Positions 1,889-48,685 of a DNA stretch of 64,000 nucleotides are shown here, piece after piece (position 1 is the first letter of the stretch; every line of letters starts with the position of its first letter). The translations under genes and the position numbers were made by a program. The DNA is taken from assembly GCA_963721385.1 (NCBI GenBank), contig CAVRJB010000008.1, forward strand, positions 42,074 through 106,073. Reading direction: 5' to 3'. This DNA is from an uncultured Acidobacteriota bacterium (lineage in GTDB: Bacteria > Acidobacteriota > Thermoanaerobaculia > UBA5066). The notes beneath the pieces are model-generated. The model saw only the letters and a program-made list of their open reading frames with translations, searched no databases and was not told the origin of the DNA.

Positions 1889-3348
1889 GAGGGCTTCTCG
1901 AGCGCTTCCTTGAGGAGCCGGTTGACGACGGCGGGGCTCGCCTTACCCCCTGTCGCCTTCATCACCTGCCCGACGAACCACCCGAACGCCGCAGCCTTTC
2001 CGGCGCGGTACGTCTCCACCTGCTGCGGGTTCGCGGCGAGGATCCTCCCGAGGACCTCGAGGATCGGCCCCTCGTCGACGATCTGGACGAGGCCCCGCTC
2101 TTTCACGACGGCGTCGGCCTCCTTCCCTGTCGCGATCATCTCCGGGAGGACCTCCTTCGCGATCTTCCCGGAGATCGTGTCGCCGTCGATGAGGGCCACG
2201 AGCCGAGCGAGGGACGCGGGCGCGAGCGGCACGCGCCCGGCCTGCTTCTCGGCGTCGGTCATCCTGCCGAGAAGGTCCGAGAGGAGCCAGTTCGCGATTC
2301 CCTTCGGGTTCGCCGGGTGACCGGCGACGGCGGCTTCGTACCAGTCGGCGAGCGGGCGGGAGAGGCAGACCAGGTCGGCGTCGCCGGGCGGGAGCCCGAG
2401 CGACGCCTCGAGCCGCTTCGCCCGCGCCTCCGGCAGCTCCGGAAGCGCCGCCTCGACCTCGCGCCGCCACGCGGCGTCGACGACGAGCGTCCCGAGATCG
2501 GGCTCCGGGAAGTAGCGGTAGTCCATCGCCTCTTCCTTCCCGCGCATCGGCTTCGTCGCGCCGGCGGCCGGGTCCCAGAGGCGCGTCTCCTGGACGATCG
2601 TCCCGCCGGCGGAAAGAGCGGCCACCTGCCGCCCGATCTCGTGCTCGAGCGCCTTCTTCACGTGGGCGATCGAGTTCAGGTTCTTGATCTCCACTTTCGT
2701 CCCGAGCGCCTCCGCGCCCGCCGGGCGGACGGAGACGTTCGCGTCGCAGCGGAGCGACCCCTCCTCCATGTTCCCGTCCGAGGCGTCGACCCACCGGACG
2801 AGCCGGCGGACCTTCACGAGGTAGTCGTAGGCCTCGTCGGCGGAGCGGAGGTCGGGCTCCGAGACGATCTCGATGAGCGGCGTTCCGGCGCGGTTCAGGT
2901 CGACGAGCGAAACACCGGTCGGCACGTCGTCCCACGGAAAATCGTGCATCGACTTCCCGGCGTCCTCCTCGAGGTGGATCCGGTGAAGGCGGATGCGGCG
3001 CGCGGCGCTCCCCGCGAGGACCTCCACGACGCCGCCCGTCGCGAGCGGCCGGTCGTACTGCGAGATCTGGTAGCCCTTCGGCAGGTCCGGGTAGAAGTAG
3101 TTCTTCCGCGCGAAGATCGAACGCTCCTGGACGGAGCCGCCGGTCGCGAGGGCGACCCGCATCGCGAGGGTCACCATCTCGCGGTTCATCACGGGAAGGA
3201 CGCCCGGATACCCGAGACAGACCGGGCAGACCGCGGTGTTCGGCGCCGCCCCGAAGACGACCGGGCAGGAGCAGAACGCCTTGCTCTTCGTCCTGAGCTG
3301 GCAGTGGACCTCGAGCCCGATGACGGGCTCGAACAGGGCGGGCGGCAT
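1885..3348 (-). CDS. gatB: Asp-tRNA(Asn)/Glu-tRNA(Gln) amidotransferase subunit B
   Basis: 487 aa. N-terminal GLEVHCQL..CSCP..CPVCLGYPG motif and C-terminal GatB/YqeY domain are diagnostic. Confidence 0.95.
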   Translation of the reverse strand: MPPALFEPVIGLEVHCQLRTKSKAFCSCPVVFGAAPNTAVCPVCLGYPGVLPVMNREMVTLAMRVALATGGSVQERSIFARKNYFYPDLPKGYQISQYDRPLATGGVVEVLAGSAARRIRLHRIHLEEDAGKSMHDFPWDDVPTGVSLVDLNRAGTPLIEIVSEPDLRSADEAYDYLVKVRRLVRWVDASDGNMEEGSLRCDANVSVRPAGAEALGTKVEIKNLNSIAHVKKALEHEIGRQVAALSAGGTIVQETRLWDPAAGATKPMRGKEEAMDYRYFPEPDLGTLVVDAAWRREVEAALPELPEARAKRLEASLGLPPGDADLVCLSRPLADWYEAAVAGHPANPKGIANWLLSDLLGRMTDAEKQAGRVPLAPASLARLVALIDGDTISGKIAKEVLPEMIATGKEADAVVKERGLVQIVDEGPILEVLGRILAANPQQVETYRAGKAAAFGWFVGQVMKATGGKASPAVVNRLLKEALEKPS

Positions 3349-3366
3349 CCGGAGAAGTCTAGCGAA

Positions 3367-4764
3367 TCAACCCGGGAGGACTTTCCCGGGATTCAGGATC
3401 CCACGCGGGTCGAGAGCGGTCTTGACGGCCCGCATCGCGTCGAGGAACGCGGCATCGCGCCGGAGCGGCAGGAGGTTCCTCAGGATCACGCCGACGCCGT
3501 GCTCCCCGGTGATGGTCCCGCCGAGCCGCACGGCCTCGGCGTAGATCCCGTGGACCGCGCCCTCGAAGACCGCCGAGCTCGCCTCGCCGTGCCCTTCGCG
3601 GAGGAGCCGGACGTGGACGTTTCCGTCGGCGGCGTGGCCGTAACAGAACGGGTGCAGCTCCGCCGCCTGCGCGATCCGGCGAACGCCGAGGACGAGCGCG
3701 ACCAGCTCGGAGCGCGGGACCGCGACGTCGATCTCGACCGAGACGCCGACGTCGTGGATCGCCTCGGCGATGCCGCGCCGGACGTCCCAGAGGGTCCTCC
3801 GCTTCGCCTCGTCCGTCGCGAGGGCGACGTCGAGCGCGCCCCCCTCGAGGAGGATCTCCCCCGCCCGCGTCACGTCCCGCTCGACCTCGCCGTCCGAGGC
3901 GCCGTCGAAGTCGAGGAGGAGCCGCGCCTCGGCCTGGGGATACGGCACGCCGACCCCCTTCTTCCGCGACGAGACCTCGACGCTCGGGCGGTCGATCATC
4001 TCGCAGGCCGACGGGACGAGCCCGCGCCGGTGGATCTCGAGGACGGCTCCCGCGGCCTTCTCGAGCGATCCGAACGGCGCGAGGACCGTGGCCCACGCGG
4101 CCGGCTTCGCGATGAGGCGGAGCCACGCCGCCGTGACGACGGCGAGAGTTCCCTCGCTCCCGACGAGGAGCGAGGTCAGGTCGTAGCCCGCCACGTCCTT
4201 CCGGGTCTTGCCGCCGGTCACCGTGACGCGCCCGTCGGCGAAGACGGCTTCGAGCCCGAGCACCCACTTCCCCGTCACGCCGTACTTGGCCGCGTGAGGG
4301 CCGCCGGCGTTCTCGGCGACGTTTCCGCCGATCAGGCACGAGCCGCGCGAGGAGGGGTCGGGCGGGTAATAGAGGCCGATCTCCTCCACCGCCTCCTGCA
4401 GCGTCTGCGTGACGACCCCCGCCTCGGCGATCGCCACGAAGTTCGCGGGGTCGATCTCGCGGATCGCGTTCAGGCGCTCGAGCGACAGTGCGACGCCGCC
4501 GTGGACGGCGAGGGCCCCGCCCGACATCCCGGTCCGCCCGCCCTGCGGCGTCACCGGGATCCGCCGCTCGTGACAGAGGGCGAGAAGCCGGGAGACCTCC
4601 GCCGTCGTGCCCGGCTTCACGACGGCCGCGGGGACGTGGACGAGGTCGCGTGTCCAGTCCTTCGCATAGGCCGAAAGGTCCTCGCCGCCGGCCAGGACGT
4701 GCCGTGAACCGACGACGCCGGCGAGCGCGGAAATCTCCCCGGGGGTCAGCTCGCGCCGGGCCAT
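3367..4764 (-). CDS. FAD-linked oxidase (GlcD / D-lactate dehydrogenase family)
   Basis: 465 aa with an FAD-binding PCMH domain (PQGGRTG...GG) and a C-terminal FAD-oxidase domain (HAGDGNLH-like HAADGNVHV). Confidence 0.8.
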   Translation of the reverse strand: MARRELTPGEISALAGVVGSRHVLAGGEDLSAYAKDWTRDLVHVPAAVVKPGTTAEVSRLLALCHERRIPVTPQGGRTGMSGGALAVHGGVALSLERLNAIREIDPANFVAIAEAGVVTQTLQEAVEEIGLYYPPDPSSRGSCLIGGNVAENAGGPHAAKYGVTGKWVLGLEAVFADGRVTVTGGKTRKDVAGYDLTSLLVGSEGTLAVVTAAWLRLIAKPAAWATVLAPFGSLEKAAGAVLEIHRRGLVPSACEMIDRPSVEVSSRKKGVGVPYPQAEARLLLDFDGASDGEVERDVTRAGEILLEGGALDVALATDEAKRRTLWDVRRGIAEAIHDVGVSVEIDVAVPRSELVALVLGVRRIAQAAELHPFCYGHAADGNVHVRLLREGHGEASSAVFEGAVHGIYAEAVRLGGTITGEHGVGVILRNLLPLRRDAAFLDAMRAVKTALDPRGILNPGKVLPG

Positions 4765-9092: not shown

Positions 9093-10046
9093 GTGTCCGA
9101 AAGCCCCGCCATCGTCTCGCGCCTCACGCACCTGACGTTCGGGCTCTGGTTTTCGTTCTTCCGCTGGATGGCGAGGACGTTGCCGCCCGAGTGGGTGGCC
9201 CGGCTCGCGGCGGCGACGGCCGAGCGGGCGATCTGGGAGCGGGAGAGCGTCCACGACGCCATCGCCGACAACTTCTCGGCCGTCCTCGGCCTCCCGCCTG
9301 GGGACCGCCGCGTCGAGGAGACGGGACGCGAAATGGTCTCTCGCCATTCACGGCAGTGGATCGACTTCCTTCGCTACACGGGGCGCGCGGACATCGACGT
9401 GCGCGCACTGCGCGCAAGCCGCTCCGGGGACGAGCACCTTATCGCTGCGCGGGACGCGGGGAAGGGCGCGATCCTCCTGACCGCCCACGTCGGCAACTTC
9501 GAGCTGGGCGGGCTCTTCCTCCGCGAGCTCGGCCTTTCGTGCGCGGCGGCGTACGTCCCGGACCCGTCGCCCGTCATCGAGAGGCACCGCGAGGAGGCGC
9601 GGAAAGCGCTCGGCGTCACGGGCATCCCGGTGACGTCCTCCCCCTTCGCTTTCGTACCGCTTCTACGCGCCCTCCGCGAGGGTCGCTTCGTGGCGATGCA
9701 GGGGGACCGGGACGTCTCAGGCACGGGGCGGACCCTCCCGTTCTTCGGGAGGTCGGCCTCGTTTCCGGTCGGCCCGTTCCGCCTCGCGGCCTTCTCGGGG
9801 GCGCCACTCCTTCCCGTCTTCGTGCTCCAGGAGAACGACGGCCGGTACCGGACGCTCGCCGAGGAACCGATCCGCCTCGCGCTCGCCCCGGGATCGCGTT
9901 CGGAGCCCGACGAGGGGGAGCTGGAAGCCGCCCTGGCGCACTGGGTGAGCGTTCTGTCGAGGGTCATCCGCGAGAATCCCACGCAGTGGTATCTCTTCAC
10001 CCGGTTCTGGGAGGCGCCAGACCCCGCGGAAGGCGCCTCCCTATAA
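9093..10046 (+). CDS. lysophospholipid / lipid A (Kdo2-lipid IVA) acyltransferase family protein (LpxL/HtrB-like)
   Basis: 317 aa with an N-terminal hydrophobic anchor and an HX4D-type acyltransferase motif (AHVGNFELGG). GTG start. Confidence 0.7.
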   Translation: MSESPAIVSRLTHLTFGLWFSFFRWMARTLPPEWVARLAAATAERAIWERESVHDAIADNFSAVLGLPPGDRRVEETGREMVSRHSRQWIDFLRYTGRADIDVRALRASRSGDEHLIAARDAGKGAILLTAHVGNFELGGLFLRELGLSCAAAYVPDPSPVIERHREEARKALGVTGIPVTSSPFAFVPLLRALREGRFVAMQGDRDVSGTGRTLPFFGRSASFPVGPFRLAAFSGAPLLPVFVLQENDGRYRTLAEEPIRLALAPGSRSEPDEGELEAALAHWVSVLSRVIRENPTQWYLFTRFWEAPDPAEGASL

Positions 10047-10119: not shown

Positions 10120-11628
10120 ATGAAGATCGTCATCGCCACCGACCGCAACCAGCCGAACGAACGCTACCGCGGCGCGCTGCTCTGCGCGGGGGCGCTGCCC
10201 GAGGAAGTCGCCGTCGTCACGCCGGGGCAGAAGCTCCCCGACGAGTTCGACGGGCTGCTCCTCGCAGGGGGGCCCGACGTCGCGCCGGAGCGCTACGGGG
10301 AGGCGCCCGCCACCGACGCGCTGGCGATCGACGCCGCGCGCGACACGCTCGACTTCGCCCTTCTCTCGGCCACGGCCGAGCGGAAGATCCCGGTCTTCGG
10401 CATCTGCCGCGGGATCCAGGTGATCAACGTCGCCCTCGGCGGGACTCTGTGGCAGGACCTCGACACGCAGCGGCGGCGCGGCGTCGTCCACGATTGCGAC
10501 CGCGACGCGGCGATCTTCCCCGACCACCTCGTCCGGTCGCGCGCCCCTTCGTCCGGCGGGTCGGCCTTCGCTGCCGCGCTCTTCTCCCCGAACGGGACGA
10601 CGGTCAACTCGCGCCACCACCAGGGAATCAAGGACCTCGCGCCCGGCCTCGCCTCGCTCGCCGCCTCGCCCGACGATCTCGTGGAAGCCGTGGAGAAGCC
10701 GGGCGAGCCGTTCCTCGCGGCGGTGCAGTGGCACCCGGAGGATCTGGTCGCCCGGCCCGATCAGAAGCGGCTCTTCCGCGCCTTCCTCGAGGCCTGCCGG
10801 GCGCGGGTCCGGCGGACGGGGCGGCGCCCCTCAACGCTGATCGAGGTCGCGCTCACGGGGCGCATCCCCGTCGTCCGCTTCAACCGGCCGGCCGCCCGAA
10901 ACGCCTTCACCACGCCGATGGCCGCGATGCTCGCCGACACGGTCGACGCCCTCGGCCGAGACATGACCGTTCCCGCCATCGTCCTCGCGGGAAACGGGGG
11001 CGCCTTCTCCGCCGGCGGCGACCTCGACGTGATGCGCGCCCTCGCCGCCGCCTCGGACGAGGAGGGTTTCCGCGACCTGCTCGAGGCGGGCGGCCGCGCG
11101 GTCCTCGCGATCCTCGACGCGCCGCGCCCCGTCCTCGCCGCGGTGGACGGCGCGGCGGCCGGTGGCGGGATGAGCCTCGCGCTCGCAGCCGACGTCCGAG
11201 TCGCCTCGTCGGCGGCCGGCCACGCCGCGCTCTTCGTCCCCTCGTATACCGCGGTCGGCCTGATCCCCGCGTGGGGAGCGACGCTCCACCTGTCCGAGCG
11301 CCTCGGCGCCGGCCCCGCGGCGGACGTCGTCTTCTCGGCGGAGCGCATTGGCGCGGTCCGCGCCCGCCAGTTGGGCCTCGTCGACGTCCTCGTCGAGGAC
11401 GGCCCGAGCCTTCCGGCCGCGCTGGCGCGCGCGGAGACCTACGCCGAGCGCTCGCTCGCGGCCGTCGCCGCCGCCAAGCGCCTTCTCGCGGCCGAGCGGC
11501 GGCCGCGCCTTGTGGGCGCGCTCGGCCGCGAGGTGGAAAGCCAGATCGAGCTCTTCCGGAGCGGGGAGCTCCTCCGGCGACTGCCGGGAAACGAGCGAGT
11601 CCGCCCGGACGAACAGGAGACCTCATGA
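10120..11628 (+). CDS. fusion protein: class I glutamine amidotransferase-like / peptidase C26 domain + enoyl-CoA hydratase/isomerase (crotonase) domain
   Basis: N-terminal domain has GICRGIQ, HHQ and VQWHPE motifs (PuuD / gamma-glutamyl hydrolase-like). C-terminal domain is a crotonase fold (VVRFNRPAARNAF...GNGGAFSAGGDL). No stop codon separates the two domains. Confidence 0.65.
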   Translation: MKIVIATDRNQPNERYRGALLCAGALPEEVAVVTPGQKLPDEFDGLLLAGGPDVAPERYGEAPATDALAIDAARDTLDFALLSATAERKIPVFGICRGIQVINVALGGTLWQDLDTQRRRGVVHDCDRDAAIFPDHLVRSRAPSSGGSAFAAALFSPNGTTVNSRHHQGIKDLAPGLASLAASPDDLVEAVEKPGEPFLAAVQWHPEDLVARPDQKRLFRAFLEACRARVRRTGRRPSTLIEVALTGRIPVVRFNRPAARNAFTTPMAAMLADTVDALGRDMTVPAIVLAGNGGAFSAGGDLDVMRALAAASDEEGFRDLLEAGGRAVLAILDAPRPVLAAVDGAAAGGGMSLALAADVRVASSAAGHAALFVPSYTAVGLIPAWGATLHLSERLGAGPAADVVFSAERIGAVRARQLGLVDVLVEDGPSLPAALARAETYAERSLAAVAAAKRLLAAERRPRLVGALGREVESQIELFRSGELLRRLPGNERVRPDEQETS

Positions 11629-34542: not shown

Positions 34543-36141
34543 ATGAACCCCACCGTCCCCCGCCGCCCGCGGCCCGCTCGGGCCGCCGGGCTTCTCCTCC
34601 TCGCCGCCGGCCTTCTTGCCGGCGCGCTCCCGGCCTTCGCACAGGAGCTGAAGGTCGAGGAGCGGACCCTGTCGAACGGGCTGAAGCTCCTCCTCCTTCC
34701 CCGGAAGGACGAGCCGACGATCGCCTGCGGCTGGGTCGCGAAGGTCGGCAGCGTCAACGAGCGCCCCGGGATCACCGGCATCAGCCATCTCTTCGAGCAC
34801 ATGATGTTCAAGGGGACGCCGACGATCGGGACGAAGGACGCGAGGAAGGACCTCGAGATCATCGAGGAGCAGGAGAAGGTCCGTGCCGGGATGCACGAAG
34901 AGATCTCGAAGATGCGCGCCGCCTGGCGCCGCGGCGAGATCGACGACATCACGAAGCCCGAGAACAAGACCACGCGGTACAAGGAGCTCGAGGCGAAGTT
35001 CGACGCGCTCGTGAAGGCCCAGCGCGACCTCCTGGTCAAGAACGAGTTCGACCGGATCTACACCGGGCAGGGGGGCTCGGGGATGAACGCCTTCACGACG
35101 TACGACATGACGGGCTACTTCGTCACCGTCCCGAAGAACAAGCTCGAGCTCTGGATGTGGATGGAGTCGGACCGCCTCCTCTCCCCCGTCTTCCGGGAGT
35201 TCTACGCCGAGCGGGACGTCGTCTACGAGGAGCGCCGCCTGCGCGTCGAGTCGACGCCGACCGGAAAGCTGGAAGAGGCCTTCGAGGAGATCTTCTGGCA
35301 CAGCTCCCCCTACTCGTGGCCCGTCCTCGGCTACCCCTCGGACGTCGCGGCCATCACGAAACAGCAGGCGGACGACTACTACGCGCTCTACTACGCGCCG
35401 AACAACGTCACCGCGATCCTCGTCGGCGACTTCGACCCGAAGGAGGCCCTCGCCCTCGCCGAGCGCTACCTGGGCCGGATTCCGCGAGGGAAGAACCCGC
35501 CCCCCGAGGTCATCACGACCCCGCCGAAGTGGGACGCCGAGGTCCGTTTTTCCGGCGAGGCGGAGACGAACCCCGAGATCGAGATCTCCTGGCACACCGT
35601 CCCCTTCCAGAACCGGGACAGCTACGCGCTGGAAATCCTGGCCGGCCTCCTGAACGGCCGGACGGGGCGCCTCGAGAAGGCGCTCGTCCTCCCCGCAAAC
35701 GCCGTCGCCACGAATGCGAGCGCCTCGGCGGGAGGCGTCATGAGCGGGGCCCCGCTGAAGTACGCCGGCGCCTTCTCCGTGGGCGCCGAAGTGAAGGAGG
35801 GAAAGTCGCTCGGGGACGTTGAGACGGGGATCCTCGCCGAGATCGAGAAGCTCAAGGAGCAGCCGGTCCCGGCCGAAGAGCTCCAGAAGGTGAAGAACAA
35901 CGTCGCCGCCGCCTCGTTTCGGCGGCTCTCGAGCAATTTCTACATCATGTTCCAGCTCCTCCACTACGAAGGCTTCGGCGACTGGCGCGAGATGAACGAG
36001 GCGCCGCGAAAGGCCGCGGCGGTCACCGCCGGGGACGTGCAGCGGGTCGCGAAGACCTACTTCCGAAAGGACAACCGCGCCGTCTATCTCGTCACCCGCA
36101 AGGAAGGGGCTGCCGCCCAGCCGTCGACGGTGAAGAAGTGA
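34543..36141 (+). CDS. secreted M16 family zinc peptidase (active subunit)
   Basis: Signal peptide and the inverted zinc motif HLFEHMMF (HxxEH). 532 aa. Confidence 0.85.
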   Translation: MNPTVPRRPRPARAAGLLLLAAGLLAGALPAFAQELKVEERTLSNGLKLLLLPRKDEPTIACGWVAKVGSVNERPGITGISHLFEHMMFKGTPTIGTKDARKDLEIIEEQEKVRAGMHEEISKMRAAWRRGEIDDITKPENKTTRYKELEAKFDALVKAQRDLLVKNEFDRIYTGQGGSGMNAFTTYDMTGYFVTVPKNKLELWMWMESDRLLSPVFREFYAERDVVYEERRLRVESTPTGKLEEAFEEIFWHSSPYSWPVLGYPSDVAAITKQQADDYYALYYAPNNVTAILVGDFDPKEALALAERYLGRIPRGKNPPPEVITTPPKWDAEVRFSGEAETNPEIEISWHTVPFQNRDSYALEILAGLLNGRTGRLEKALVLPANAVATNASASAGGVMSGAPLKYAGAFSVGAEVKEGKSLGDVETGILAEIEKLKEQPVPAEELQKVKNNVAAASFRRLSSNFYIMFQLLHYEGFGDWREMNEAPRKAAAVTAGDVQRVAKTYFRKDNRAVYLVTRKEGAAAQPSTVKK

Positions 36142-37672
36142 GGACCCCGAACGTGACAGACCACGGCCCTTCTCCTCCACGCCTCCTCTCCCTCCTCCTC
36201 CTGGCCTCGTCCCTTCCGGCCACGGAGATCGCCACCCACCCGGACAAGCTGACGTACCCGGCGTTCGCCTTCACGCCCCCGTCGGCGAAGGACCACCGGA
36301 CCGTCCTCCCGTCGGGCCCCGTCGTCTACGTCGCCGAGAACCGCGAGCTCCCGATCGTGAACGTCAGCCTCGTCTTCCGGGGTGGGACGTACCTCGACCC
36401 GGCCGGCAAGGAGGGCCTCGCGTCCCTCGCGGGCACCCTCCTGACGCGGAGCGGGACGAAGGGCCGGACCCCCGAGCAGCTCGAGGAGCGGCTCGCCTTC
36501 CTCGCCGCCCAGCTCTCGTCCGGCTGGTCCGACGACCGCGGCGCCGTGACGCTCAACCTCCTCTCGAAGGACCTCGACGAGGGGCTCGCCATCCTCCGCG
36601 AAGTCCTGACCGAGCCGCGCTACGCCGAAGAGCGGATCAGGCTCCGGAAGGAGCAGCGCCTCTCGGAGATGAAGCAGCGGAACGACGACTCCGCCGCCAT
36701 CGAGGCGCGCGAGCGGGACTTCCTCGTCTACGGGAACGATTTCTTCGTGACCCGCTACGACACGAAGGCCTCCCTCGACTCTCTCACGCAGGGCGACCTT
36801 TTGGCCTTCCAGAAGAAGTGGATTCACCCCCGGAACGTCCTTGTCGCCGTCTCGGGCGACGTCGACCGGGCCGCGATCCTGAAGAAGCTCGACGCGCTCT
36901 TCGCCGCGCTGGCCGACGCCGGGCGAGGCCGCGCCGCCCGTTCCGAAGCCCAGCCACACCCTGGCGCCCGGGACCTTCCTCGTCGACAAGGACGTCAACC
37001 AGGGACGCGTCTTCGATCCTGCTCCCCGGGATCTCGCGCGACGACCCGGACTACTTCCCCGCCGTCGTCATGAACGACATCCTCGGCGGAGGCGGCTTCA
37101 CGAGCCGGATTACGAATCGCGTCCGGTCGGACGAGGGGCTCGCCTACTCGGCCAACTCGCAGTTCAGCGGCGGCGTCTGGTACCCCGGCACCTGGAGCGC
37201 CTCGTTCCAGTCGAAGGTCCGGACCGCGTCGTACGCAGCCGAGATCGTCCTCGACGAGGTGAAGAAGCTCCGCGCGGGCGGCGTCACCGACGAGGAGCTG
37301 AAGACCGCCAAGGCCTCGTTCGTCGAGACCTTCCCGCGCCGCTTCGCCACGAAGGCGCGGGTCGCGGGAGCGCTCCTCGACGAGGAGTTCACGGGCCGCT
37401 ACAGGACCGACCCGAACTACTTCGCCGAGGTCCGCGGCCGGATCGAGAAGGTGACGGCCGCCGACGCGAAGCGCGTCGCGGACCGCCTGCTGTCTCCCGA
37501 GAAGGTGACGATCCTCGCCGTCGGGAACAGGGAAGGCCTCCTGAACCCCGATCCGAAGCACCCCGTGACGTTCGCCGACCTGACCAGAGGAAAGCTGACG
37601 TTCCTGCCGCTCCGGGATCCGATGACGATGCAGCCGATCACGGCTCCGGCGCCGGACGGGAGCGGAAAGTGA
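36138..37672 (+). CDS. secreted M16 family peptidase, non-catalytic partner subunit; two apparent +1 indels near 36905 and 37010
   Basis: Homology runs through three frames (ORF 36138..37073, a 35-aa middle segment, ORF 36818..37672). Removing one G and one T restores ...ALFAALPTPGEAAPPVPKPSHTLAPGTFLVDKDVNQGRVSILLPGISRDDPDYF... Confidence 0.7.
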
Positions 37673-41807: not shown

Positions 41808-43021
41808 GCCCGGCAAAGAAGCCCTCCGGTGCGGTAACCGTCCGGATGTACAACGTCGGCTTCGGCGACGCGTTCCTCCTGACGTTTCCCGGCTCGCCGC
41901 CGAGAAAGGTCCTCGTCGACTGCGGCTCCCACAACGCCGGCCCGGGCCCCGAGCCAATCGGCGACGTGGCCGCCCGGATCGTCCAGGACGTCACGGGAGC
42001 CGACGGCGTCCCGAAGATCGACGTCGTCATCGCCACGCACCGCCACCGGGACCACGTCGCGGGCTTTTCGTCGCCCGTCTGGAAGGACGTGCGCGTTGGC
42101 GAGGTCTGGATGCCGTGGACCGAGGAGCCTGATGACCCCGACGCAAAGAGAATCCGCGAAGCACAGAGTTCCGGCGCGGCCAAGCTCCACGCGGCCCTCC
42201 GGCTCTCCGGCGCCCCCGACCACGTCCTCGACCTCGTCGCCAACTGCCTCACGAACGAAAAGGCGATGGCGACGCTCCACGGCGGCTTCGCCGGGAAGCC
42301 CCACCGCTTCTTCCTGCCGAAAAAGGGCGCGGAGAGAAAGCCCTTCACCCCGGCCGCACTTCCGGGCGTCACCGTCCACCTCCTCGGCCCGTCGCGCGCC
42401 CCCGACGTCATCCGCGACATGGAGCCGCCGAAGGGAAAGGGCTATCTGCGGCTCTCGGGCGAGGCCGACGGCGGCGCCGGCCTGCCGTTCCGCCGCCGGT
42501 GGGCCATGACGCCGAAGGAGTTCGACGCCACCGCCGCCTTCGCGCACCTCAGGCTTCCCGAGAAGTACCGCCGGGCCGTCGACGCCCTCGGCGAGGACGA
42601 CGACCTCGCGGTCGCCGTCGCCCTCGACGCCGCGGTCAACGGCACCAGCCTGATGCTGATGTTCGAGGTCGGGAAGGCGTTTCTCCTCTTCCCCGGAGAT
42701 GCGCAGTGGGGGACGTGGAACGCGGTCCTCTCGGACGAATCGGCCGTCCAGCTCCTGAAGAAGACCGTCTTCTGCAAGATCGGCCACCACGGCAGCCACA
42801 ACGCCACGCCGCGGGAGTTCGTCGAGAACGACCTCTCGACGTTCTCGGCCATGGTCTCCACCCGCCCGATGCCCAATTGGAAGTTCATTCCGAAGCCGGC
42901 GCTGATGGCCGCGCTTCACAAGAAGTCGAACGCCGTCGTCCGAAGCGACCAGCTCTCGTCCGTCCCCTCCGGCTTCACGAAGCACGGAAACATCTGGGTG
43001 GAGACGAGGATCCCGGTCTGA
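41804..43021 (+). CDS. MBL-fold metallo-hydrolase (ComEC/DNA-internalisation-like MBL subgroup)
   Basis: VRMYNVGFGDAFLL..VLVDCGS, HRHRDH (HxHxDH) and a distal KIGHHGSHN motif. Start overlaps the upstream stop (ATGA). Confidence 0.65.
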   Translation: MSPAKKPSGAVTVRMYNVGFGDAFLLTFPGSPPRKVLVDCGSHNAGPGPEPIGDVAARIVQDVTGADGVPKIDVVIATHRHRDHVAGFSSPVWKDVRVGEVWMPWTEEPDDPDAKRIREAQSSGAAKLHAALRLSGAPDHVLDLVANCLTNEKAMATLHGGFAGKPHRFFLPKKGAERKPFTPAALPGVTVHLLGPSRAPDVIRDMEPPKGKGYLRLSGEADGGAGLPFRRRWAMTPKEFDATAAFAHLRLPEKYRRAVDALGEDDDLAVAVALDAAVNGTSLMLMFEVGKAFLLFPGDAQWGTWNAVLSDESAVQLLKKTVFCKIGHHGSHNATPREFVENDLSTFSAMVSTRPMPNWKFIPKPALMAALHKKSNAVVRSDQLSSVPSGFTKHGNIWVETRIPV

Positions 43022-43031
43022 GAGGAGCGCC

Positions 43032-43548
43032 ATGGCCCAGTTCACCGTCAACGCCGGCCGCTTCGACCCGTACAAGAACTTCAAGTTCCGCGTAAAGTGG
43101 GATGGCAAGGTCGTCGCCGGCGTCAGCCGCGTCAGCCCGCTCCGGCGCGTCACGGAGGTCATCGAGCACCGCGAGGGAGGCGACCCGAACACGTCCCGGA
43201 AGTCGCCGGGAAGGACCCAATTCGACGCCATCACCCTCGAGCGGGGGGTCACGCACGACCCGGCCTTCGAAGAGTGGGCGAACCAGGTCTGGCGCCTCGG
43301 CGCCGGCGCGGGCGCCGAGGTCGCTCTGGCCAACTTCCGCAAGGACATCGTGCATCGAGTTCTGCAACGAGGCCGGGCAGGTGGCCCTGGCCTACAAGGT
43401 CTACCGCTGCTGGCCCTCGGAGTACCAGCCTCTTCCGGCCCTCGACGCCGACTCCGGGGCGGCCGCCTTCCAGTCGATCACCCTCCAGCACGAAGGGTGG
43501 GAGCGCGACACCTCGGTCCAGGAGCCGCAGGAACCCAAGTCGACGTGA
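43032..43548 (+). CDS. phage T4 gp19 / eCIS (Afp1/Pvc1-like) tail tube protein homologue (TIGR02241-like); apparent +1 indel near 43357
   Basis: N-terminus has FKFRVKWDG...IEHREGGDPNTSRKSPGRTQFDAITLERGVT. The C-terminus (IEFCNEAGQVALAYKVYRCWPSEYQ...ITLQHEGWER) lies in the frame of ORF 43102..43548. Deleting one base in gtgcatcgag joins them as ...FRKDIVIEFCNEAG... Confidence 0.65.
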
Positions 43549-43943
43549 GCGCCGGCGGCGCGGATCCGCCGGCGCGTCTCGACGTCCGGAAGACGCTCCG
43601 CCCGGGCGAGCGGGGAACGAGGAAGTTGCTCAAGCTCTACGGCAACGACCTCGTCTCCGTCCGCTACCGCCACGACGAGGCCGCCGGCGTCCGCCTGAAG
43701 ACGGCCGAGATCGTCGTCGCCCGGGTCAAGCTCAAGCGGTCGAGGTCGCTCCCCCCGAGCGCCCTCGTCTACGCGAAGGTCGAGCCGTGGGAGAAGCCGC
43801 TGCACGAGAAGCTCAAGAAAGCTGGCGCGCGGTGGGACCCGGGACTACGATTGTGGCGGATGCGCTACGACACGGCCCTCGCCCTGGGGCTCCGACGGCG
43901 GATCCTGACGTCCCTTCCGAAGCCCGAAAGCGGTCACCGGTAG
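43545..43943 (+). CDS. small Lys/Arg-rich hypothetical protein (candidate DNA-binding protein)
   Basis: GTG start overlaps the tail-tube stop (GTGA). Lys-rich, non-repetitive composition argues for real coding sequence. Its last codons overlap the first downstream direct repeat. Confidence 0.4.
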   Translation: MSAGGADPPARLDVRKTLRPGERGTRKLLKLYGNDLVSVRYRHDEAAGVRLKTAEIVVARVKLKRSRSLPPSALVYAKVEPWEKPLHEKLKKAGARWDPGLRLWRMRYDTALALGLRRRILTSLPKPESGHR

Positions 43944-44008
43944 GAACTTAAATGCGGTCACCCGTAGGAACATTCGCCCGAAACAGACCAAAAGCGGTCA
44001 CCGGTACC
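43930..44008 (+). repeat. three direct repeats of an imperfect palindrome GCGGTCACC(G/C)GTAGG (spacing 24 and 40 nt)
   Basis: Read directly from the sequence. Copies begin at about 43930, 43954 and 43994. Each has a CGGT(C)ACCG core with dyad symmetry. Confidence 0.6.
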
Positions 44009-44032
44009 CACCTGGGGGTGCCGTCTAATACT

Positions 44033-44039
44033 AGTTAGG
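44033..44039 (+). other. isolated GTTAGGC integron-type core site (GTTRRRY), 25 nt downstream of the direct repeats
   Basis: Sequence match to the canonical attI/attC R' core. No upstream attC-like stem is present, so it may be an attI-like or attG-like site. Confidence 0.35.
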
Positions 44040-44451
44040 CGGCGAATGGACGAACGCGGCCTCGTCGCTGGCTCGACGTCCGACACCTTGGCTCGAGATT
44101 CGAAGCTCTACTCCGGCCGACCGCGTCGAGCACTGCGCCTTATCGCGCGGTGAGCCGGTGGAGCCGTCTCCTCGACAATTCCCCGCTGACCGGCTTACTC
44201 GAGCTTGCTGAGCGCACTCGCGCTCAGCTTTCTCCACGGCATCGACGGCGGCCTAGCCCGCGTCTCACTCGCAGATCTGGAGGTGGCGTCAGCCCGCCAC
44301 AGTGTAGGCGTATCGCTCGTCAGCATCGCCTCGCAGGGCAGCATCGCGCCGAGCACTCCTTGCGGCCGTCGAGCCACGTAAGTCGCGGCACGCTACCCGA
44401 GGGCGAGCGGCTCGCGCTGCAGCGGCAGCTTGCGGCCGAGCGGGCGTGGCC

Positions 44452-44483
44452 ACCTAACAGCGCGCTGCAGCGGACTCGGAGGT
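44452..44483 (+). other. 5' half (R''-L'') of an integron attC-like site, interrupted by the IS3 element
   Basis: ACCTAAC (RYYYAAC) then GCGCTGCAGCGGACTCGG. Homologous to the 5' halves of the intact copies at 46397 and 46987. Confidence 0.6.
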
Positions 44484-44527
44484 TGCTTCGGTATCGTTGA
44501 CACTCTCAGCTAACTAGAGAGGTCGCG

Positions 44528-44884
44528 ATGGGAAAAGCAGGACCCCGGAGAGTCAGAAGCTACAGCCAGGAGTTCAAGCTGCGGGCCGTTCAGCTGAGCC
44601 GGCAGCCGGGAGTCCTGGTCCGGGACGTGGCGCTTTCACTGAGCATTCACCCCTTCATGCTGTCGCGCTGGCGCAAGCAGGCCCGGGACGGCCAGCTGCG
44701 CGGTGCCTTGCCGGCTCTGGACCTGAAAGCCGTGGGTGAGCTCCAGCGGCTGCGAGAGGTCGAGCGCGATTACAAGCGGCTGAAGATGGAGCATGAGCTC
44801 CTAAAAAGAGCGATCCGGTTCGCCCGCGAGTTACGGGGGACGTCTTCGCGTTCCTCGAGGCGAACCGGAGGTTCTTCCCGGTGA
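44528..44884 (+). CDS. IS3 family transposase OrfA (HTH domain)
   Basis: SYSQEFKLRAVQL...MLSRWRKQ and a leucine-zipper-like C-terminus. A run of A's followed by G (CTAAAAAGAG, a likely slippery site) lies near 44810. Confidence 0.8.
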   Translation: MGKAGPRRVRSYSQEFKLRAVQLSRQPGVLVRDVALSLSIHPFMLSRWRKQARDGQLRGALPALDLKAVGELQRLREVERDYKRLKMEHELLKRAIRFARELRGTSSRSSRRTGGSSR

Positions 44885-45711
44885 GCCTGATGTGCAGGAG
44901 GTTCGGCGTCACGCGGGCCGGGTTCTACGCCTGGCGACGCCGTCGTCCGAGTCGCCGGACGTGTTCTGACGCGGCGATGACCGAACGGGTTCTGGCGGTG
45001 TTCCAGGAGGCGAGGGGGCTTTACGGCAGCCCTCGAGTGACCCGGGAACTCGGGCGGCGAGGCGTTTCGGTTGGCCGACGCCGTGTCGCGCGTCTGATGC
45101 GCCTGGCACAGCTCCAGGGCCGCTCGGCCCGTCTTTACCGCCGGTCGCGCGTGGGTCAGAAGGCGTTCTATCGGCTGCATCCGAACACGGTCCACGGTCT
45201 CACGACGACCGGCCCGGACCAGCTCTGGGTGGGAGACGTCACGTACGTCCGGGTCGCCGGACGCTGGCGGTACCTGGCCGTCGTGATGGACCGGCACTCC
45301 CGCAGGGTCCTCGGATGGAGCCTGGGCCGGAATCGGGACGCTTCGCTGACCCGGCGCGCCCTCACTCACGCCGTCCGATGGCGCCGTCCGCCTGCGGGCC
45401 TGACGTTTCACAGCGACCGCGGGATCGAGTACTCGGCCGTCCACCTCGGAGACGAACTGTCCCGCCGGGGTTTCGTCCAGAGCATGAATCGCCCGCGGCA
45501 GATGAACGACAACGCCCACATGGAGTCGTTCTTCCATTCGCTGAAGACCGAGTGGCTCTTCGGGATGACGTTCCAGAAGGACTCCGACCTCCGGGCCGCT
45601 CTCCTCGACTACGTCGGCTTCTACAATCGGCGGCGCCTCCATTCGTCCCTTGGATACCTTCCCCCGGCCGTGTTCGAAGCCCAGGTCCCTAACCACACGG
45701 GTGTCAACTGA
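44881..45711 (+). CDS. IS3 family transposase OrfB (DDE integrase catalytic domain)
   Basis: LWVGDVTYV...HSDRGIEY...NAHMESFFHSLKTE gives the D, D35E motifs of rve-type integrases. Confidence 0.85.
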   Translation: MSLMCRRFGVTRAGFYAWRRRRPSRRTCSDAAMTERVLAVFQEARGLYGSPRVTRELGRRGVSVGRRRVARLMRLAQLQGRSARLYRRSRVGQKAFYRLHPNTVHGLTTTGPDQLWVGDVTYVRVAGRWRYLAVVMDRHSRRVLGWSLGRNRDASLTRRALTHAVRWRRPPAGLTFHSDRGIEYSAVHLGDELSRRGFVQSMNRPRQMNDNAHMESFFHSLKTEWLFGMTFQKDSDLRAALLDYVGFYNRRRLHSSLGYLPPAVFEAQVPNHTGVN

Positions 45712-45720
45712 ACCGAAGCA

Positions 45721-45763
45721 AGTTCCCTCGCTACGCTCGCCGCTGAGCTCGATATCGTTAGGC
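45721..45763 (+). other. 3' half (L'-R') of the IS-interrupted attC-like site, ending in canonical GTTAGGC
   Basis: CGCTCGCCGCTGAGCTCGATATCGTTAGGC is homologous to the 3' halves of the other copies. The next ORF starts 21 nt downstream. Confidence 0.6.
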
Positions 45764-45783
45764 GATTCTTAGGGGAGGACATC

Positions 45784-46347
45784 ATGCGTTCACAGGCCTT
45801 CCTTTCGAGCAATTGTTCGCGACGGACGATTACCGGGCTCGCAGTGCTTGTTCTTCTGGCTGCCACTCCGGCGCACGCTCAGGTGTCGTGCAAGCTGCTC
45901 CAGCCGGTAGAGCTTGAGTCGATCCTGAAGGAGTGGGCCGCAGGAGGGAAAACGGCAAAGTTCTCCGGCTCCACCGACAACTCAAGCGGCATAGCCTTCG
46001 ACGCCTGCAGCAGCGAAATCGTGAGACCGGGTCAAGGGAATCTGCAGATCAGGGTCGTCGTTGTCAAGAATCTCCCCATGAGCGGCGGCGACGCCATACG
46101 CACGCGAAACGCAGCTTTGGCACGCGAGGGCCAGTGGAAGGTCAAGGGCGCGCAATTTGAGGAAAAGGCAGTGGGCAAAGCGATGTGCACCCTGTATGGC
46201 AGGCCCGGAGTGGCAGCACATTCGGTGTGCGCCATCCCCAGCGCGAATGGTTATGTCGAGGTGGAGGTGATTACTCCTTTTCAGAAGGTGATCGTATCAA
46301 TGGATGCCGTAGGGACGCTGGTGCAGAAGGCGAACAGCCGCTTGTGA
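45784..46347 (+). CDS. cassette ORF: secreted hypothetical protein (signal peptide, 4 Cys), lower GC
   Basis: 187-aa ORF with an AGGGGAGG RBS, followed by an attC-like site. Confidence 0.55.
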   Translation: MRSQAFLSSNCSRRTITGLAVLVLLAATPAHAQVSCKLLQPVELESILKEWAAGGKTAKFSGSTDNSSGIAFDACSSEIVRPGQGNLQIRVVVVKNLPMSGGDAIRTRNAALAREGQWKVKGAQFEEKAVGKAMCTLYGRPGVAAHSVCAIPSANGYVEVEVITPFQKVIVSMDAVGTLVQKANSRL

Positions 46348-46396
46348 CTAACAAGGTCCATATTGACGTGAAACGGTCCCGGAACAAAAGTCGGGC

Positions 46397-46457
46397 GTCG
46401 AACAACACGCTGCAGCGGACTCGCTTGCGCTCGCCGCTGAGCGCGGTATCGTCAGGC
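46397..46457 (+). other. integron attC-like recombination site (61 bp; R'' GTCGAAC ... R' GTCAGGC)
   Basis: Inverted core sites, an internal imperfect palindrome with an extrahelical G (GCTGCAGCGG vs CCGCTGAGC), and a position immediately 3' of an ORF. Confidence 0.6.
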
Positions 46458-46526
46458 CGACAGACGCGCGTCACCGCCGATAACGCCCCGTGTGGCCCAT
46501 ATCACTCGAACCCCAGGAGGAACACC

Positions 46527-46977
46527 ATGATCGTTGAAGCACAGGTAACCATCAACGGATCCAAGGCGGCGATCTGGGCGGCAATCACCAACATCGAGAA
46601 CGCCTCGGAAACCATCAGCGGAATCGAAAACATTGAGGTCCTCGAAAAACCGGCAAACGGGCTCGTCGGACTAAGGTGGCGAGAGACCCGAATGCTATTT
46701 CGGCAAGCCAGCTACCGCGGAAAAGTGGATCACCGATGCTGCTGAGAACGAGTTCTACAAAACCAAAGCAGAAAGTGATGGATTTGTATTCTTAACCACC
46801 AAGAGTATTTCAGAGAGCAGTGGCGGCATTACGTTGGCTGAGTCTCATGATTCCAAGCCTCAAGGCATCGTTGCAAAACTAATGTCGATCCCAATGCTGT
46901 TTCTGTTCAAGGGCGTGGTGAAGAAGGCCCTCCTGCAAGACCTAAACGATATTAAGTCCGCAGTTGAACAGAAATGA
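46527..46977 (+). CDS. cassette ORF: SRPBCC (Bet v1 / polyketide-cyclase-like) protein; apparent +1 indel in a TTT run near 46700
   Basis: N-terminal part in frame 1 (MIVEAQVTINGSKAAIWAAI...RETRMLF). The remainder (GKPATAEKW...KKALLQDLNDIKSAVEQK) is in the +1 frame. GC is only about 45 %. Confidence 0.6.
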
Positions 46978-46986
46978 TCGATTGCG

Positions 46987-47046
46987 GCCTAACGACGGCA
47001 TGCAGCGGACGCGCTTCGCTCGCCGCTGAGCGCGGTATCGTCAGGC
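46987..47046 (+). other. integron attC-like recombination site (60 bp; R'' GCCTAAC ... R' GTCAGGC)
   Basis: Same architecture as 46397..46457, with about 85 % identity to it. Confidence 0.65.
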
Positions 47047-47092
47047 CGCAGAAGAAACATTCCTCTCACCACCACCGCGCATCGGAGGTCAC

Positions 47093-47479
47093 ATGAAACG
47101 AGTCACTGGTATCGGGGGCATCTTCTTCAAGGCGAAAGACGCTCCATCACTGCAGGCTTGGTACAAGCGGCACTTGGGAATCGATGTCCAGGCCTGGGGC
47201 GGAGCTGCCTTCGATTGGACCGACGCCGAGGGCAAGCCGGTTGCAGGCACAACTGCCTGGCTCATCGATCCGCAAGAAAGTAATCACTTTGCTCCGAGCT
47301 CTGCTTCCTTCATGGTCAACTACCGAGTGGAAGACCTCCACGCCTTGGTCAAGGTCTTGAAGGAAGAAGGCTGCAATGTGCTCGAGAAGATTGACGAATC
47401 CGAGTATGGGAAGTTTGCCTGGGTCATTGATCCAGAGGGAAACAAGGTCGAGCTATGGCAGCCGCCACAAGGCCAATGA
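47093..47479 (+). CDS. cassette ORF: VOC (glyoxalase/bleomycin-resistance) family protein
   Basis: 128 aa with the VOC beta-alpha-beta-beta-beta fold pattern (GIGGIFFKAKD...). Confidence 0.7.
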   Translation: MKRVTGIGGIFFKAKDAPSLQAWYKRHLGIDVQAWGGAAFDWTDAEGKPVAGTTAWLIDPQESNHFAPSSASFMVNYRVEDLHALVKVLKEEGCNVLEKIDESEYGKFAWVIDPEGNKVELWQPPQGQ

Positions 47480-47510
47480 GCAGGCTCGTTACGCACGGCC
47501 GCGAACTGCG

Positions 47511-47582
47511 GCCTGACACTTCGTTCAACCGGACGCCTTGCGGCGGGCTGCCGCAAGGCGCCGGTTAACTCGAACGTCAGGC
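47511..47582 (+). other. integron attC-like site of a different sequence class (72 bp; R'' GCCTGAC ... R' GTCAGGC; internal perfect palindrome GCCTTGCGGCgggctGCCGCAAGGC)
   Basis: Perfectly inverse core sites and a central hairpin. It sits between two + strand ORFs. Confidence 0.6.
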
Positions 47583-47616
47583 AGCACACCGATCCGCAGC
47601 GCCTGAGGTACCACTC

Positions 47617-48090
47617 GTGACAAATATCCGCACGTCGAGTTCAGTCCTTCTTGCGGCAGCGATGAGCTCGTTCGCAATCGCTCTCGTTCACCTCGGCATC
47701 ATGTTCATGGGCGCTCCGGGCTACCGTTACTTCGGTGCGCCGGGACTCGCCGTTCAAGTGGAGCGTGGGTCCTCGGTGCCCGCGTTTCTCTGTATTGGCG
47801 TCGCCGCGCTCCTTGGCCTTTGGGGTCTCTACGCCCTCGCAGGGGCAGGCCGGATCCGACCGCTGCCTCTGCTTCGCGCAGGCATCCTTCTCATCGGTAC
47901 TATCTACCTCCTCCGGGGGTTGCTCGGGCTCCCGCAACTCGTCTGGGTACTCGCCGGGCGCAACGTGGCACCCCTCCGATACCTCCTCTTCTCTCTGGTG
48001 TCGGGCGTCACTGGCGTGCTCTATCTCGCCGGCCTCTTTGGACTTCGGCGTGCCACACGCGCCACCTTCGAGGAGCACCGTGCTGCCTGA
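47617..48090 (+). CDS. cassette ORF: small integral membrane protein (4 TM), unknown function
   Basis: GTG start 35 nt after the R' core. The TGA stop is embedded in the next GCCTGAC core. Confidence 0.5.
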   Translation: MTNIRTSSSVLLAAAMSSFAIALVHLGIMFMGAPGYRYFGAPGLAVQVERGSSVPAFLCIGVAALLGLWGLYALAGAGRIRPLPLLRAGILLIGTIYLLRGLLGLPQLVWVLAGRNVAPLRYLLFSLVSGVTGVLYLAGLFGLRRATRATFEEHRAA

Positions 48091-48174
48091 CCCCTCGCTC
48101 CAGCGGACGCGCTAGCGATCGCCACCGGCTCGTGGCGGGAATTTGCTCACGACGTGCTGGCGCGCAAGTGACGG
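48085..48174 (+). other. degenerate attC-like site (R'' GCCTGAC overlapping the stop codon; 5' arm homologous to the 46397/46987 copies; R' decayed to GTGACGG)
   Basis: GCTCCAGCGGACGCGCTAGCGATCGCC aligns to GCTGCAGCGGACTCGCTTGCGCTCGCC. Confidence 0.45.
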
Positions 48175-48202
48175 TGGCGCCTTCGGGGCGCTCCTCCTGA
48201 CC

Positions 48203-48685
48203 TCACTTCGCCGCGGGTGGCGCGGGAGGGAGCGAGGTCCGGGAGTAGAGGCCGACCGGGTGACCGGCCGGATCCACGACGAGGCCGATGGCCCCGGTGC
48301 CGTCCGTCAGATTGAAGGGAAATCCGGGAATGACCGTTCCCCCCAGCTCTTTCGCCTTCCTGCAGCTGGCCAGGATGTCGATCACCTGGACGTAGACGAC
48401 GCCGTTGAAGGGGCTGATCTTCCCCTCCGCGACCCGCAGCGTCCCGATGGCGGTGCCGCTCGCGACGATCTCCGCCGCCAGGTCGGTGCCCGGCACCGGG
48501 TTGAATTTCCAGTCGAAGAGCTTGCCGTAGAATTCCTTCGCCTGTGCGAGGTTGGTCGTGGAGATGTCGAACCAGGCGATGCGCCCCGGTCCGACATCGG
48601 CGGGGGGAGCCTTCTGCGTCGCCGCCGGAAGCGGTCCGGTCAAGAGGGTCATGACCATGGTGATCGCCGAGATCGCGTTTCGCAT
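48203..48685 (-). CDS. VOC (glyoxalase-like) family protein with signal peptide, in inverted orientation relative to neighbouring cassette ORFs
   Basis: 160 aa with a VOC fold pattern. Confidence 0.65.
   Translation of the reverse strand: MRNAISAITMVMTLLTGPLPAATQKAPPADVGPGRIAWFDISTTNLAQAKEFYGKLFDWKFNPVPGTDLAAEIVASGTAIGTLRVAEGKISPFNGVVYVQVIDILASCRKAKELGGTVIPGFPFNLTDGTGAIGLVVDPAGHPVGLYSRTSLPPAPPAAK

Follow-up and report, generated by a model that had tools for sequence, protein, structure and literature searches.

What marks the point at which the host-like DNA of an integron platform ends and its gene cassettes begin, and which protein reads the short repeats placed in front of that point? 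These questions are raised by a stretch of 64,000 nucleotides from an uncultured Acidobacteriota bacterium (GenBank assembly GCA_963721385.1, contig CAVRJB010000008.1, positions 42,074 to 106,073 of the forward strand), here called the window and numbered from its first letter, in which the gene of a small basic protein runs into three direct repeats that are followed by a lone GTTAGGC. A preliminary description made from the sequence alone had likened this arrangement to an attI-type site or to an operator array. We regard it as highly likely that the interval holds an integron attI site. Our favoured reading overall, to which we give moderate confidence, is an attI site with an accessory array, where the small protein would act as a recombination accessory factor, as a gate on transcription, or as both. 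The components of an integron as usually described are the integrase gene intI, the attI site and the cassette promoter Pc; what is new here, and apparently undescribed, is that the integron platform includes a further conserved gene together with a site array.

The attI site and the three repeats before it

The features at the junction are the following.

43545 to 43943, + strand: gene of the small basic protein, 132 amino acids (31 Lys and Arg, 13 Asp and Glu, net charge +18), with a GTG start that overlaps the stop codon of a gp19-like gene
43927 to 43947, no strand assigned: repeat 1, AAAGCGGTCACCGGTAGGAAC, with the core TCA-CCGG-TAG at 43934 to 43943
43951 to 43971, no strand assigned: repeat 2, AATGCGGTCACCCGTAGGAAC, with the core TCA-CCCG-TAG at 43958 to 43967
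43991 to 44011, no strand assigned: repeat 3, AAAGCGGTCACCGGTACCCAC, with the core TCA-CCGG-TAC at 43998 to 44007
44003 to 44022, no strand assigned: imperfect GC-rich inverted repeat GGTACCC-N6-GGGTGCC, which abuts the L box
44023 to 44040, no strand assigned: attI simple site, with the L box GTCTAAT at 44023 to 44029, a 4-nt spacer ACTA and the R box GTTAGGC at 44034 to 44040

The GTTAGGC is found where the preliminary description had put it, at 44034 to 44040 and exactly 25 nt past the third repeat. The heptamer alone is unremarkable, with 3 copies in the window versus 2.3 expected, and its significance rests on its context and on the comparison of loci. The context is an R box of the form GTTRRRY with an inverted L box a few base pairs upstream, as in an attI site. 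For the comparison, the window was aligned with three related loci (L001, L002, and L013; the prefix L is used for all related loci). The four sequences are collinear, at 88-96% identity, over roughly 10 kb of upstream DNA; the collinearity ends at GTTAG, and beyond it each has a first cassette unlike those of the other three. The alignment bears out the claim that GTTAGGC is the exact boundary between host-like and cassette-type DNA. Divergence directly after GTT is also seen between L004 and L006, whose platforms are identical, and between L014 and L015. From the aligned sequences we infer a crossover between G44034 and T44035. Further support for the earlier attI-type reading comes, besides the junction itself, from the attC-bounded cassettes and from homologous loci with intI beside the same module of small gene, repeats, and simple site.

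In the inverted repeat at 44003 to 44022, no consistent compensatory changes were found among close relatives. A comparable GC-rich inverted repeat stands before the L box in L003, L058, L063, and L081, which belong to distant lineages.

The repeats had been reported as a 15-mer, GCGGTCACCGGTAGG, at 43930, with a one-mismatch variant at 43954 and a two-mismatch variant at 43994, and all three were recovered at these coordinates. In register they are 21-mers, copies 2 and 3 being 90% and 86% identical to copy 1, with 24 and 40 bp between their starts and with their centres 29, 69, and 93 bp upstream of the centre of the simple site. A search of the whole window allowing up to two mismatches returned no copies beyond the three, so the 15-mer is unique to these sites at this scale. 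First-order Markov simulations predict 0.37 matches of this quality per 64 kb when both strands are counted, and chance therefore falls far short of explaining two further copies within 80 bp. Repeat 1 overlaps the final codons and the TAG (43941 to 43943) of the small gene, as had been noticed before, and it aligns with sites of L001 to L003, L009, and L011 to L013.

The internal dyad that had been assigned to every copy, CGGT-C-ACCG, is perfect in copies 1 and 3, but copy 2 reads CGGTCACCC. Related loci point to TCA-CCGG-TAG rather than to that dyad as the symmetry centre, and the dyad is probably not the functional one. As judged from the aligned arrays, the TCA-CCGG-TAG of the window is a half-degenerate, GC-rich form of the CTA-N4-TAG core of relatives, and copy 2 of L002 still holds CTACCCGTAG. 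Repeats 2 and 3 vary in concert from locus to locus, reading GTCACCSGTA in the window, GCTACCGGTAG in L003, and CCTAGCTCTAG in L009. Close relatives keep the repeat cores and the simple site and differ in the spacers. It is likely, in our judgement, that the repeats are functional protein sites. A structured RNA or single-stranded DNA element at the repeats was considered and rejected, with folding no better than that of shuffled sequences (z = -0.4 and +0.2); an Rfam scan of 43000 to 48500 gave no credible family.

The small-protein family and its repeat arrays

The 132-residue protein has 23 close homologues, and among relatives the small open reading frame (ORF) is intact and 86-95% identical. 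Its wider family comprises at least 641 proteins in a profile search, and 3126 clusters at 50% identity in an exhaustive search, 1970 of them at E ≤ 1e-10; the name given to members in the sources is "hypothetical protein" throughout. Scans of the window protein against Pfam, NCBIfam, and PHROG assigned it to no family, and a profile search of PDB sequences gave no match. It is modelled with confidence by AlphaFold2, with a predicted local distance difference test score (pLDDT) of 89. The winged-helix or Xis/MerR-like fold expected of an Xis protein or recombination directionality factor was absent from the results of the Foldseek and profile searches of PDB. A weak likeness to DUF5710, a domain for which we know of no function, was seen in the C-terminal half (AGARWDPxxxLW) of 9 of 19 members (best E 0.0045), and the best Foldseek matches in BFVD are DUF5710 phage proteins (E 0.05-0.17); the window protein itself scores 15.1 bits (E 0.02), under the Pfam gathering threshold of 26.5 bits. 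An internal duplication, by which a monomer could sit on a palindromic site, was rejected after hhalign of the N-terminal against the C-terminal half returned a probability of 6.6%. The small gene's own promoter contains no copies of the repeats. In L021 two homologues of the small protein stand in tandem (3036 to 3885; hidden Markov model E values 2e-27 and 2e-49).

The neighbourhood of the small gene was surveyed with one genome per species, which gave 229 loci confirmed by tblastn, of which 80 were kept. These come from Acidobacteriota, Gamma-, Beta-, and Deltaproteobacteria, Geobacterales, Chloroflexota, Bacteroidota, and others. A co-oriented intI lies directly upstream in 15 loci (with a gap of 22-104 bp in 14 and of 2.7 kb in one), a divergent intI lies 77-1310 bp upstream in 16, and fragments of intI are present in 7. 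In another 35, intI is absent from an upstream stretch of at least 2 kb, and 7 are uninformative; intI or its fragments thus accompany the small gene in 38 of the 73 informative loci. All 7 integrases that were checked pass the NCBIfam model TIGR02249, with 361-499 bits against a cutoff of 265, and in L004 to L007 the stop codon of intI overlaps the start of the small gene. The small gene is placed between intI and the cassette junction both in classical integrons, where intI is divergent, and in atypical ones, where it is co-oriented. It is not itself a cassette, because attC is missing and the conserved-to-variable break falls downstream of the gene. We also noticed a reversed order in L088 (385 to 1384), with the small gene followed by intI on the same strand and no array between them.

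A common alternative partner upstream of the small gene in the intI-less loci was sought by an all-against-all tblastx of 2.5 kb of upstream sequence and was rejected, the result being mostly GC-rich noise with real homology only between close relatives (L003 and L011, L043 and L072, L054 and L075). Carriage on plasmids was rejected as well, since a Pseudomonas homologue, searched by tblastn in 72,556 plasmids, had a single match, which was marginal and partial and is annotated as a "hypothetical protein"; the small-gene family is without a link to mobile clinical integrons.

The DNA past the stop codon of the small gene was read in about 90 loci. The layout in most of them is 2-7 lineage-specific repeats of 18-20 bp, usually palindromic and with a period of about 20-24 bp, followed by a simple site of the type GTCTAAT-N4-6-GTTRRRY, and the arrays often begin within the 3' end of the small gene. 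A motif resembling the simple site occurs within 320 bp past the stop codon in 43 of 78 loci, versus 7.7% of control windows, at a median distance of 93 bp (91 bp in the window). The array repeat is GCATCTA-N4-TAGATGC in Geobacter, Anaerolineae, and one Gammaproteobacterium, GTTTCT-N6-AGAAAC in Thermoanaerobaculia, GCGATCTACCCGTAGATCGC in Chloroflexales, and CTACCGGTAG in L003. One and the same 19-nt simple site, GCCGTCTAATACTRGTTAG, is preceded in different contigs by at least four unrelated array motifs, and for this reason the reader of the simple site, presumably IntI, appears decoupled from the reader of the array. In L062 (Salinisphaera hydrothermalis) the last repeat and the simple site, TAGATATATGTCGTCTAATTGGCGTTA, at 10395 to 10421 recur 816 bp downstream at 11211 to 11237; this second copy, inside the cassette array, may be a duplicated or partial attI.

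Where it can be judged, the type of array tracks the clade of the small protein. Proteins 72-95% identical to that of the window go with the window-type motif, those 61-69% identical with CCTAG-type arrays, and those 44-46% identical with the ATCCCTG type. The small protein has a mean pairwise identity of 46%, versus 59% for IntI, and in 89% of 555 pairs it has diverged more than IntI, with a Spearman coefficient of 0.35 between the two. By these sequence identities, the small protein evolves faster than IntI and partly independently of it.

Who reads the repeats, and what the platform does

Among candidate binders of the repeats we incline, by a narrow judgement, to the small protein. It is favoured because the simple site is constant behind differing arrays, the repeats co-vary, and the array follows the clade of the small protein, and also because this protein is only loosely coupled to IntI, belongs to a module that is kept without intI, and is basic and confidently folded. 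In the mechanism that we propose, IntI, probably supplied from elsewhere in the genome, would bind at the L and R boxes, and strand exchange at G44034|T44035 with a folded attC would insert a circular cassette. The small protein, probably as an oligomer, would occupy the three repeats and build an accessory nucleoprotein complex beside the crossover. By analogy with DR1/DR2, the direct repeats of attI1, and with other tyrosine-recombinase accessory proteins, such a complex may favour or gate attI x attC integration. It may also gate transcription from the small gene into promoterless cassettes, since that gene has a promoter of its own and points the same way as the cassettes; the two roles are compatible.

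Several observations weigh against an accessory array that is read by the small protein. The evidence that the array follows the small protein and not IntI is suggestive, and it is confounded by shared ancestry and by related motifs within Acidobacteriota. L093 carries three GTTTCT-N6-AGAAAC repeats and a canonical simple site (1560 to 1690) with the small gene absent from about 1.6 kb upstream, and L100 (330 to 460) is likewise without it in about 435 bp of upstream sequence. Conversely, no obvious array follows the gene directly in some members of the family, among them L029, L055, L069, and L088. The half-sites of the arrays in L064 and L084, TGTCTAAT, are equal to the L box and leave room for binding by IntI. 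The repeats of the window are pseudo-palindromic, and at 24, 40, and 29 bp they are not spaced in strict register with the helix. Foldseek comparison of the model with PDB and BFVD found nothing at E ≤ 0.001, so that a known DNA-binding fold is unmatched, and tblastn found no intI in the 44 kb upstream or the 20 kb downstream that the window covers.

The array could instead be an operator or roadblock, at which the small protein, as a repressor without a role in recombination, gates its own promoter or an embedded Pc that feeds the cassettes. The position and direction of the small gene, immediately upstream of the cassettes, agree with this, as do a sigma-70-like promoter of the gene in L014 and L015 (TTGCTT or TTGATT, 17 nt, TATACT) and the TATA-like cores of the AT-rich versions of the sites. 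Orphan arrays that keep the module would moreover retain a source of promoters that integrase-less arrays are otherwise thought to be without (PMC4889954). Yet a promoter search of 43000 to 44600 gave no promoter-like site in the window, the array is invariably found right beside the recombination site, and many loci show linkage or translational coupling of the gene with intI. As the whole explanation we consider regulation rather unlikely; as a function it is compatible with an attI site and accessory array, not exclusive of it.

A somewhat more doubtful explanation is that the repeats are accessory sites for IntI itself and that the small protein does something else. Its model is attI1, in which recombination of attI with attC is favoured by two direct repeats to which IntI1 binds (PMC8946536). 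Array half-sites often hold TCTA, as does the L box GTCTAAT, the identity of the two in L064 and L084 fits here as well, and the left half of the window repeat, GCGGTCA, is loosely like GCCGTCTA. Repeats of the attI1 type are expected to be like the core GTTA sequence; no GTTRRRY is present in the repeats of the window. A single IntI surface, however, is unlikely to read both one simple site and the four or more unrelated array motifs found before it, and the array palindromes have a 4-bp centre that differs from the L/R geometry of the simple site. Furthermore, the array and the small gene are kept in L015, the window, and L018, where intI is absent within at least 10 kb.

We think it improbable that small gene, repeats, and attI are a dead relic in decay after the loss of intI. 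The absence of intI from the window would fit decay, as would the degeneracy of its repeats relative to the perfect palindromes found elsewhere, the insertion sequence (IS) within the first attC, and the attC sites past about 48 kb, which are hard to recognise. Decay is at odds with a small ORF that stays intact and with cores and a simple site that are conserved between variable spacers. It is also at odds with the intI-less left flank common to the window, L001, L002, and L013, which lead into different first cassettes at the same GTT; for this reason site-specific events at attI must have taken place after intI was lost or separated. A transposon end with binding sites for a transposase, as in Tn7, Mu, or Tn402, or a chance repeat, is rejected as very improbable: several spaced repeats of about 20 bp that border foreign DNA do recall how the ends of Tn7 and Tn402 are built, but the 64 kb contain no inverted copy that could be their partner, the only adjacent transposase belongs to an unrelated IS3 element with its own ends, the variable DNA starts at the GTT of the simple site and not at the repeats, and the chance expectation given above is low.

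With no intI in the window, IntI probably acts in trans in this genome, which is the simplest reading of the site-specific events at attI. A complete integron is defined by IntegronFinder as intI and at least one attC in one cluster (PMC4889954), and a cluster of attC sites lacking an integron integrase is termed CALIN (Cury et al. 2016; PMC4889954). The window has no intI and, from 44.4 to 47.6 kb, at least four attC sites; by these definitions it is a CALIN and not a complete integron. However, the definition of a CALIN ignores attI, and in the array of the window a conserved attI and a platform gene are retained, with a junction that still turns over between strains. The metagenome-assembled genome CADECP01 carries the module twice, in L014 (9926 to 10483) with a divergent intI and in L015 (9926 to 10483) beside a sugar-kinase gene. 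The stretch common to the two is only 558 bp at 99.6% identity and runs from the -10 box (TATACT) of the small-gene promoter to GTT, after which the first cassettes differ. Cultured isolates carry such arrays too: an intI-less array with ten classical attC sites lies past the small gene in Pseudomonas sp. 1928-m, and the module heads a similar intI-less array in Salinisphaera hydrothermalis EPR70. More tentatively, small gene, array, and simple site could form a portable attI docking module of about 560 bp, in which the protein makes attI usable by an integrase in trans. If so, genomes could run several integrase-less sites of cassette acquisition and expression, and many CALINs would be live satellites. 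The data suggest continuing activity for some integrase-less arrays, as platforms that have a promoter and a docking site of their own.

How does this platform compare with known systems? The attI1 site is likewise double-stranded; its L and R boxes form an inverted pair around GTTRRRY, strands cross over at G|TT, and the roughly 100 bp upstream contain further repeats that serve as accessory elements (PMC8946536). It differs in that the repeats here number three (2-7 in relatives), are palindromes or pseudo-palindromes unrelated to the core, and vary where the simple site is constant, and in that a dedicated small protein gene is present, which class 1 integrons do not have. The atypical integrons of the Treponema type also have intI co-oriented with the cassettes (PMC3607928), as in the 15 loci described above, but here intI and attI are separated by an extra gene and a repeat array, and the module also occurs with a divergent intI or with none.

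Outside integrons, ArgR and PepA at cer and psi, and Xis, IHF, and Fis at phage att sites, bind arrays beside the core and control the architecture or the direction of the synapse. The small protein may be analogous as a small protein on a site array next to the crossover core, although it resembles Xis and winged-helix proteins in neither sequence nor fold.

The full-text literature searched contains no description of the gene or of the array, but most subscription journals fall outside its coverage and a prior description is possible; the reviews consulted mention no integron-encoded accessory protein. In V. cholerae, the integrase IntIA seems to depend on unidentified accessory factors to recombine attI with attC, and sedentary integrons are suspected to need such factors for attI x attC integration (PMC8946536); the small protein is a candidate for them. 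The function we propose for it would rest on genomic association. The gene and its array would be a fourth conserved integron component in a broad environmental set (Acidobacteriota, Proteobacteria, Geobacterales, Chloroflexota, and others). As the attI sequence of most chromosomal integrons is unknown (PMC4889954), the module is also a practical marker for attI and the first cassette in metagenomes.

The upstream flank and the cassette array

The remaining features of the window that border on the junction are the following.

43032 to 43548, + strand: T4 gp19-like tail-tube gene in two frames, with a frameshift near 43340 and Pfam PF06841 on both halves
44035 to 45757, + strand: cassette 1, body without a recognised gene; its IS-interrupted attC has R'' at about 44452 and R' GTTAGGC at 45757 to 45763
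44478 to 45728 (approximate), + strand: IS3-family insertion sequence in the attC of cassette 1, with orfA at 44528 to 44884 and orfB at 44881 to 45711
45758 to 46451, + strand: cassette 2, with a 187-residue ORF at 45784 to 46347 and attC at about 46397 to 46457; common to L001, and deeper in the array of L013
46452 to 47040, + strand: cassette 3, 589 bp, attC at 46987 to 47046 with a bottom-strand hairpin (z = -3.2); in the window and not in L001
47041 to 47576, + strand: cassette 4, with a glyoxalase-family ORF at 47093 to 47479 and attC at 47511 to 47582 (hairpin z = -8.2)

The gp19-like gene stands immediately before the small gene, in the place that intI takes in co-oriented relatives, and it is intact in L001 (171 residues; 9489 to 10004). 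This lone gp19-type gene adjoins a gene of the metallo-beta-lactamase fold and an unannotated 615-residue ORF with HExxH; other contractile-tail genes are absent nearby. Farther upstream an M16 peptidase is split into 36138 to 37073 and 36818 to 37672. The gp19-like and M16 genes are fragmented differently in L001 and L002, which suggests that the split genes are indel errors of long-read assembly and not true pseudogenes.

Downstream of 44035, attC-type repeats of two families, D1 and D19, were found. As bottom-strand hairpins, the attC sites of cassettes 3 and 4 fold at the z values listed, and a third, degenerate site folds weakly (z = -1.0). The cargo, namely glyoxalase, AHSA1/SRPBCC, and unknown ORFs, is typical for cassettes. 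The window differs from L001 by whole cassettes, the first being swapped and the 589-bp cassette 3 being found only in the window. Cassette 1 is missing from L001, which carries an intact counterpart of its attC. The IS3-family element in this attC has terminal inverted repeats at 44478 to 44503 and 45701 to 45726 and the Pfam domains HTH_Tnp_1 and rve. Its junction with attC is common to L013, and the cassette bodies upstream of that junction differ; in L013, cassette 2 of the window sits behind extra cassettes.

The R' boxes at 46451 to 46457, 47040 to 47046, and 47576 to 47582 read GTCAGGC, not GTTRRRY, with the matching R'' GCCTGAC, which suggests a lineage-specific core or decayed sites. 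Transposase genes of the IS110/IS1111 family (DEDD_Tnp_IS110, Transposase_20) stand in the arrays of L002 (11388 to 14398) and L003 (3656 to 6239), and they recall the attC-targeting elements that the IS1111 group includes.

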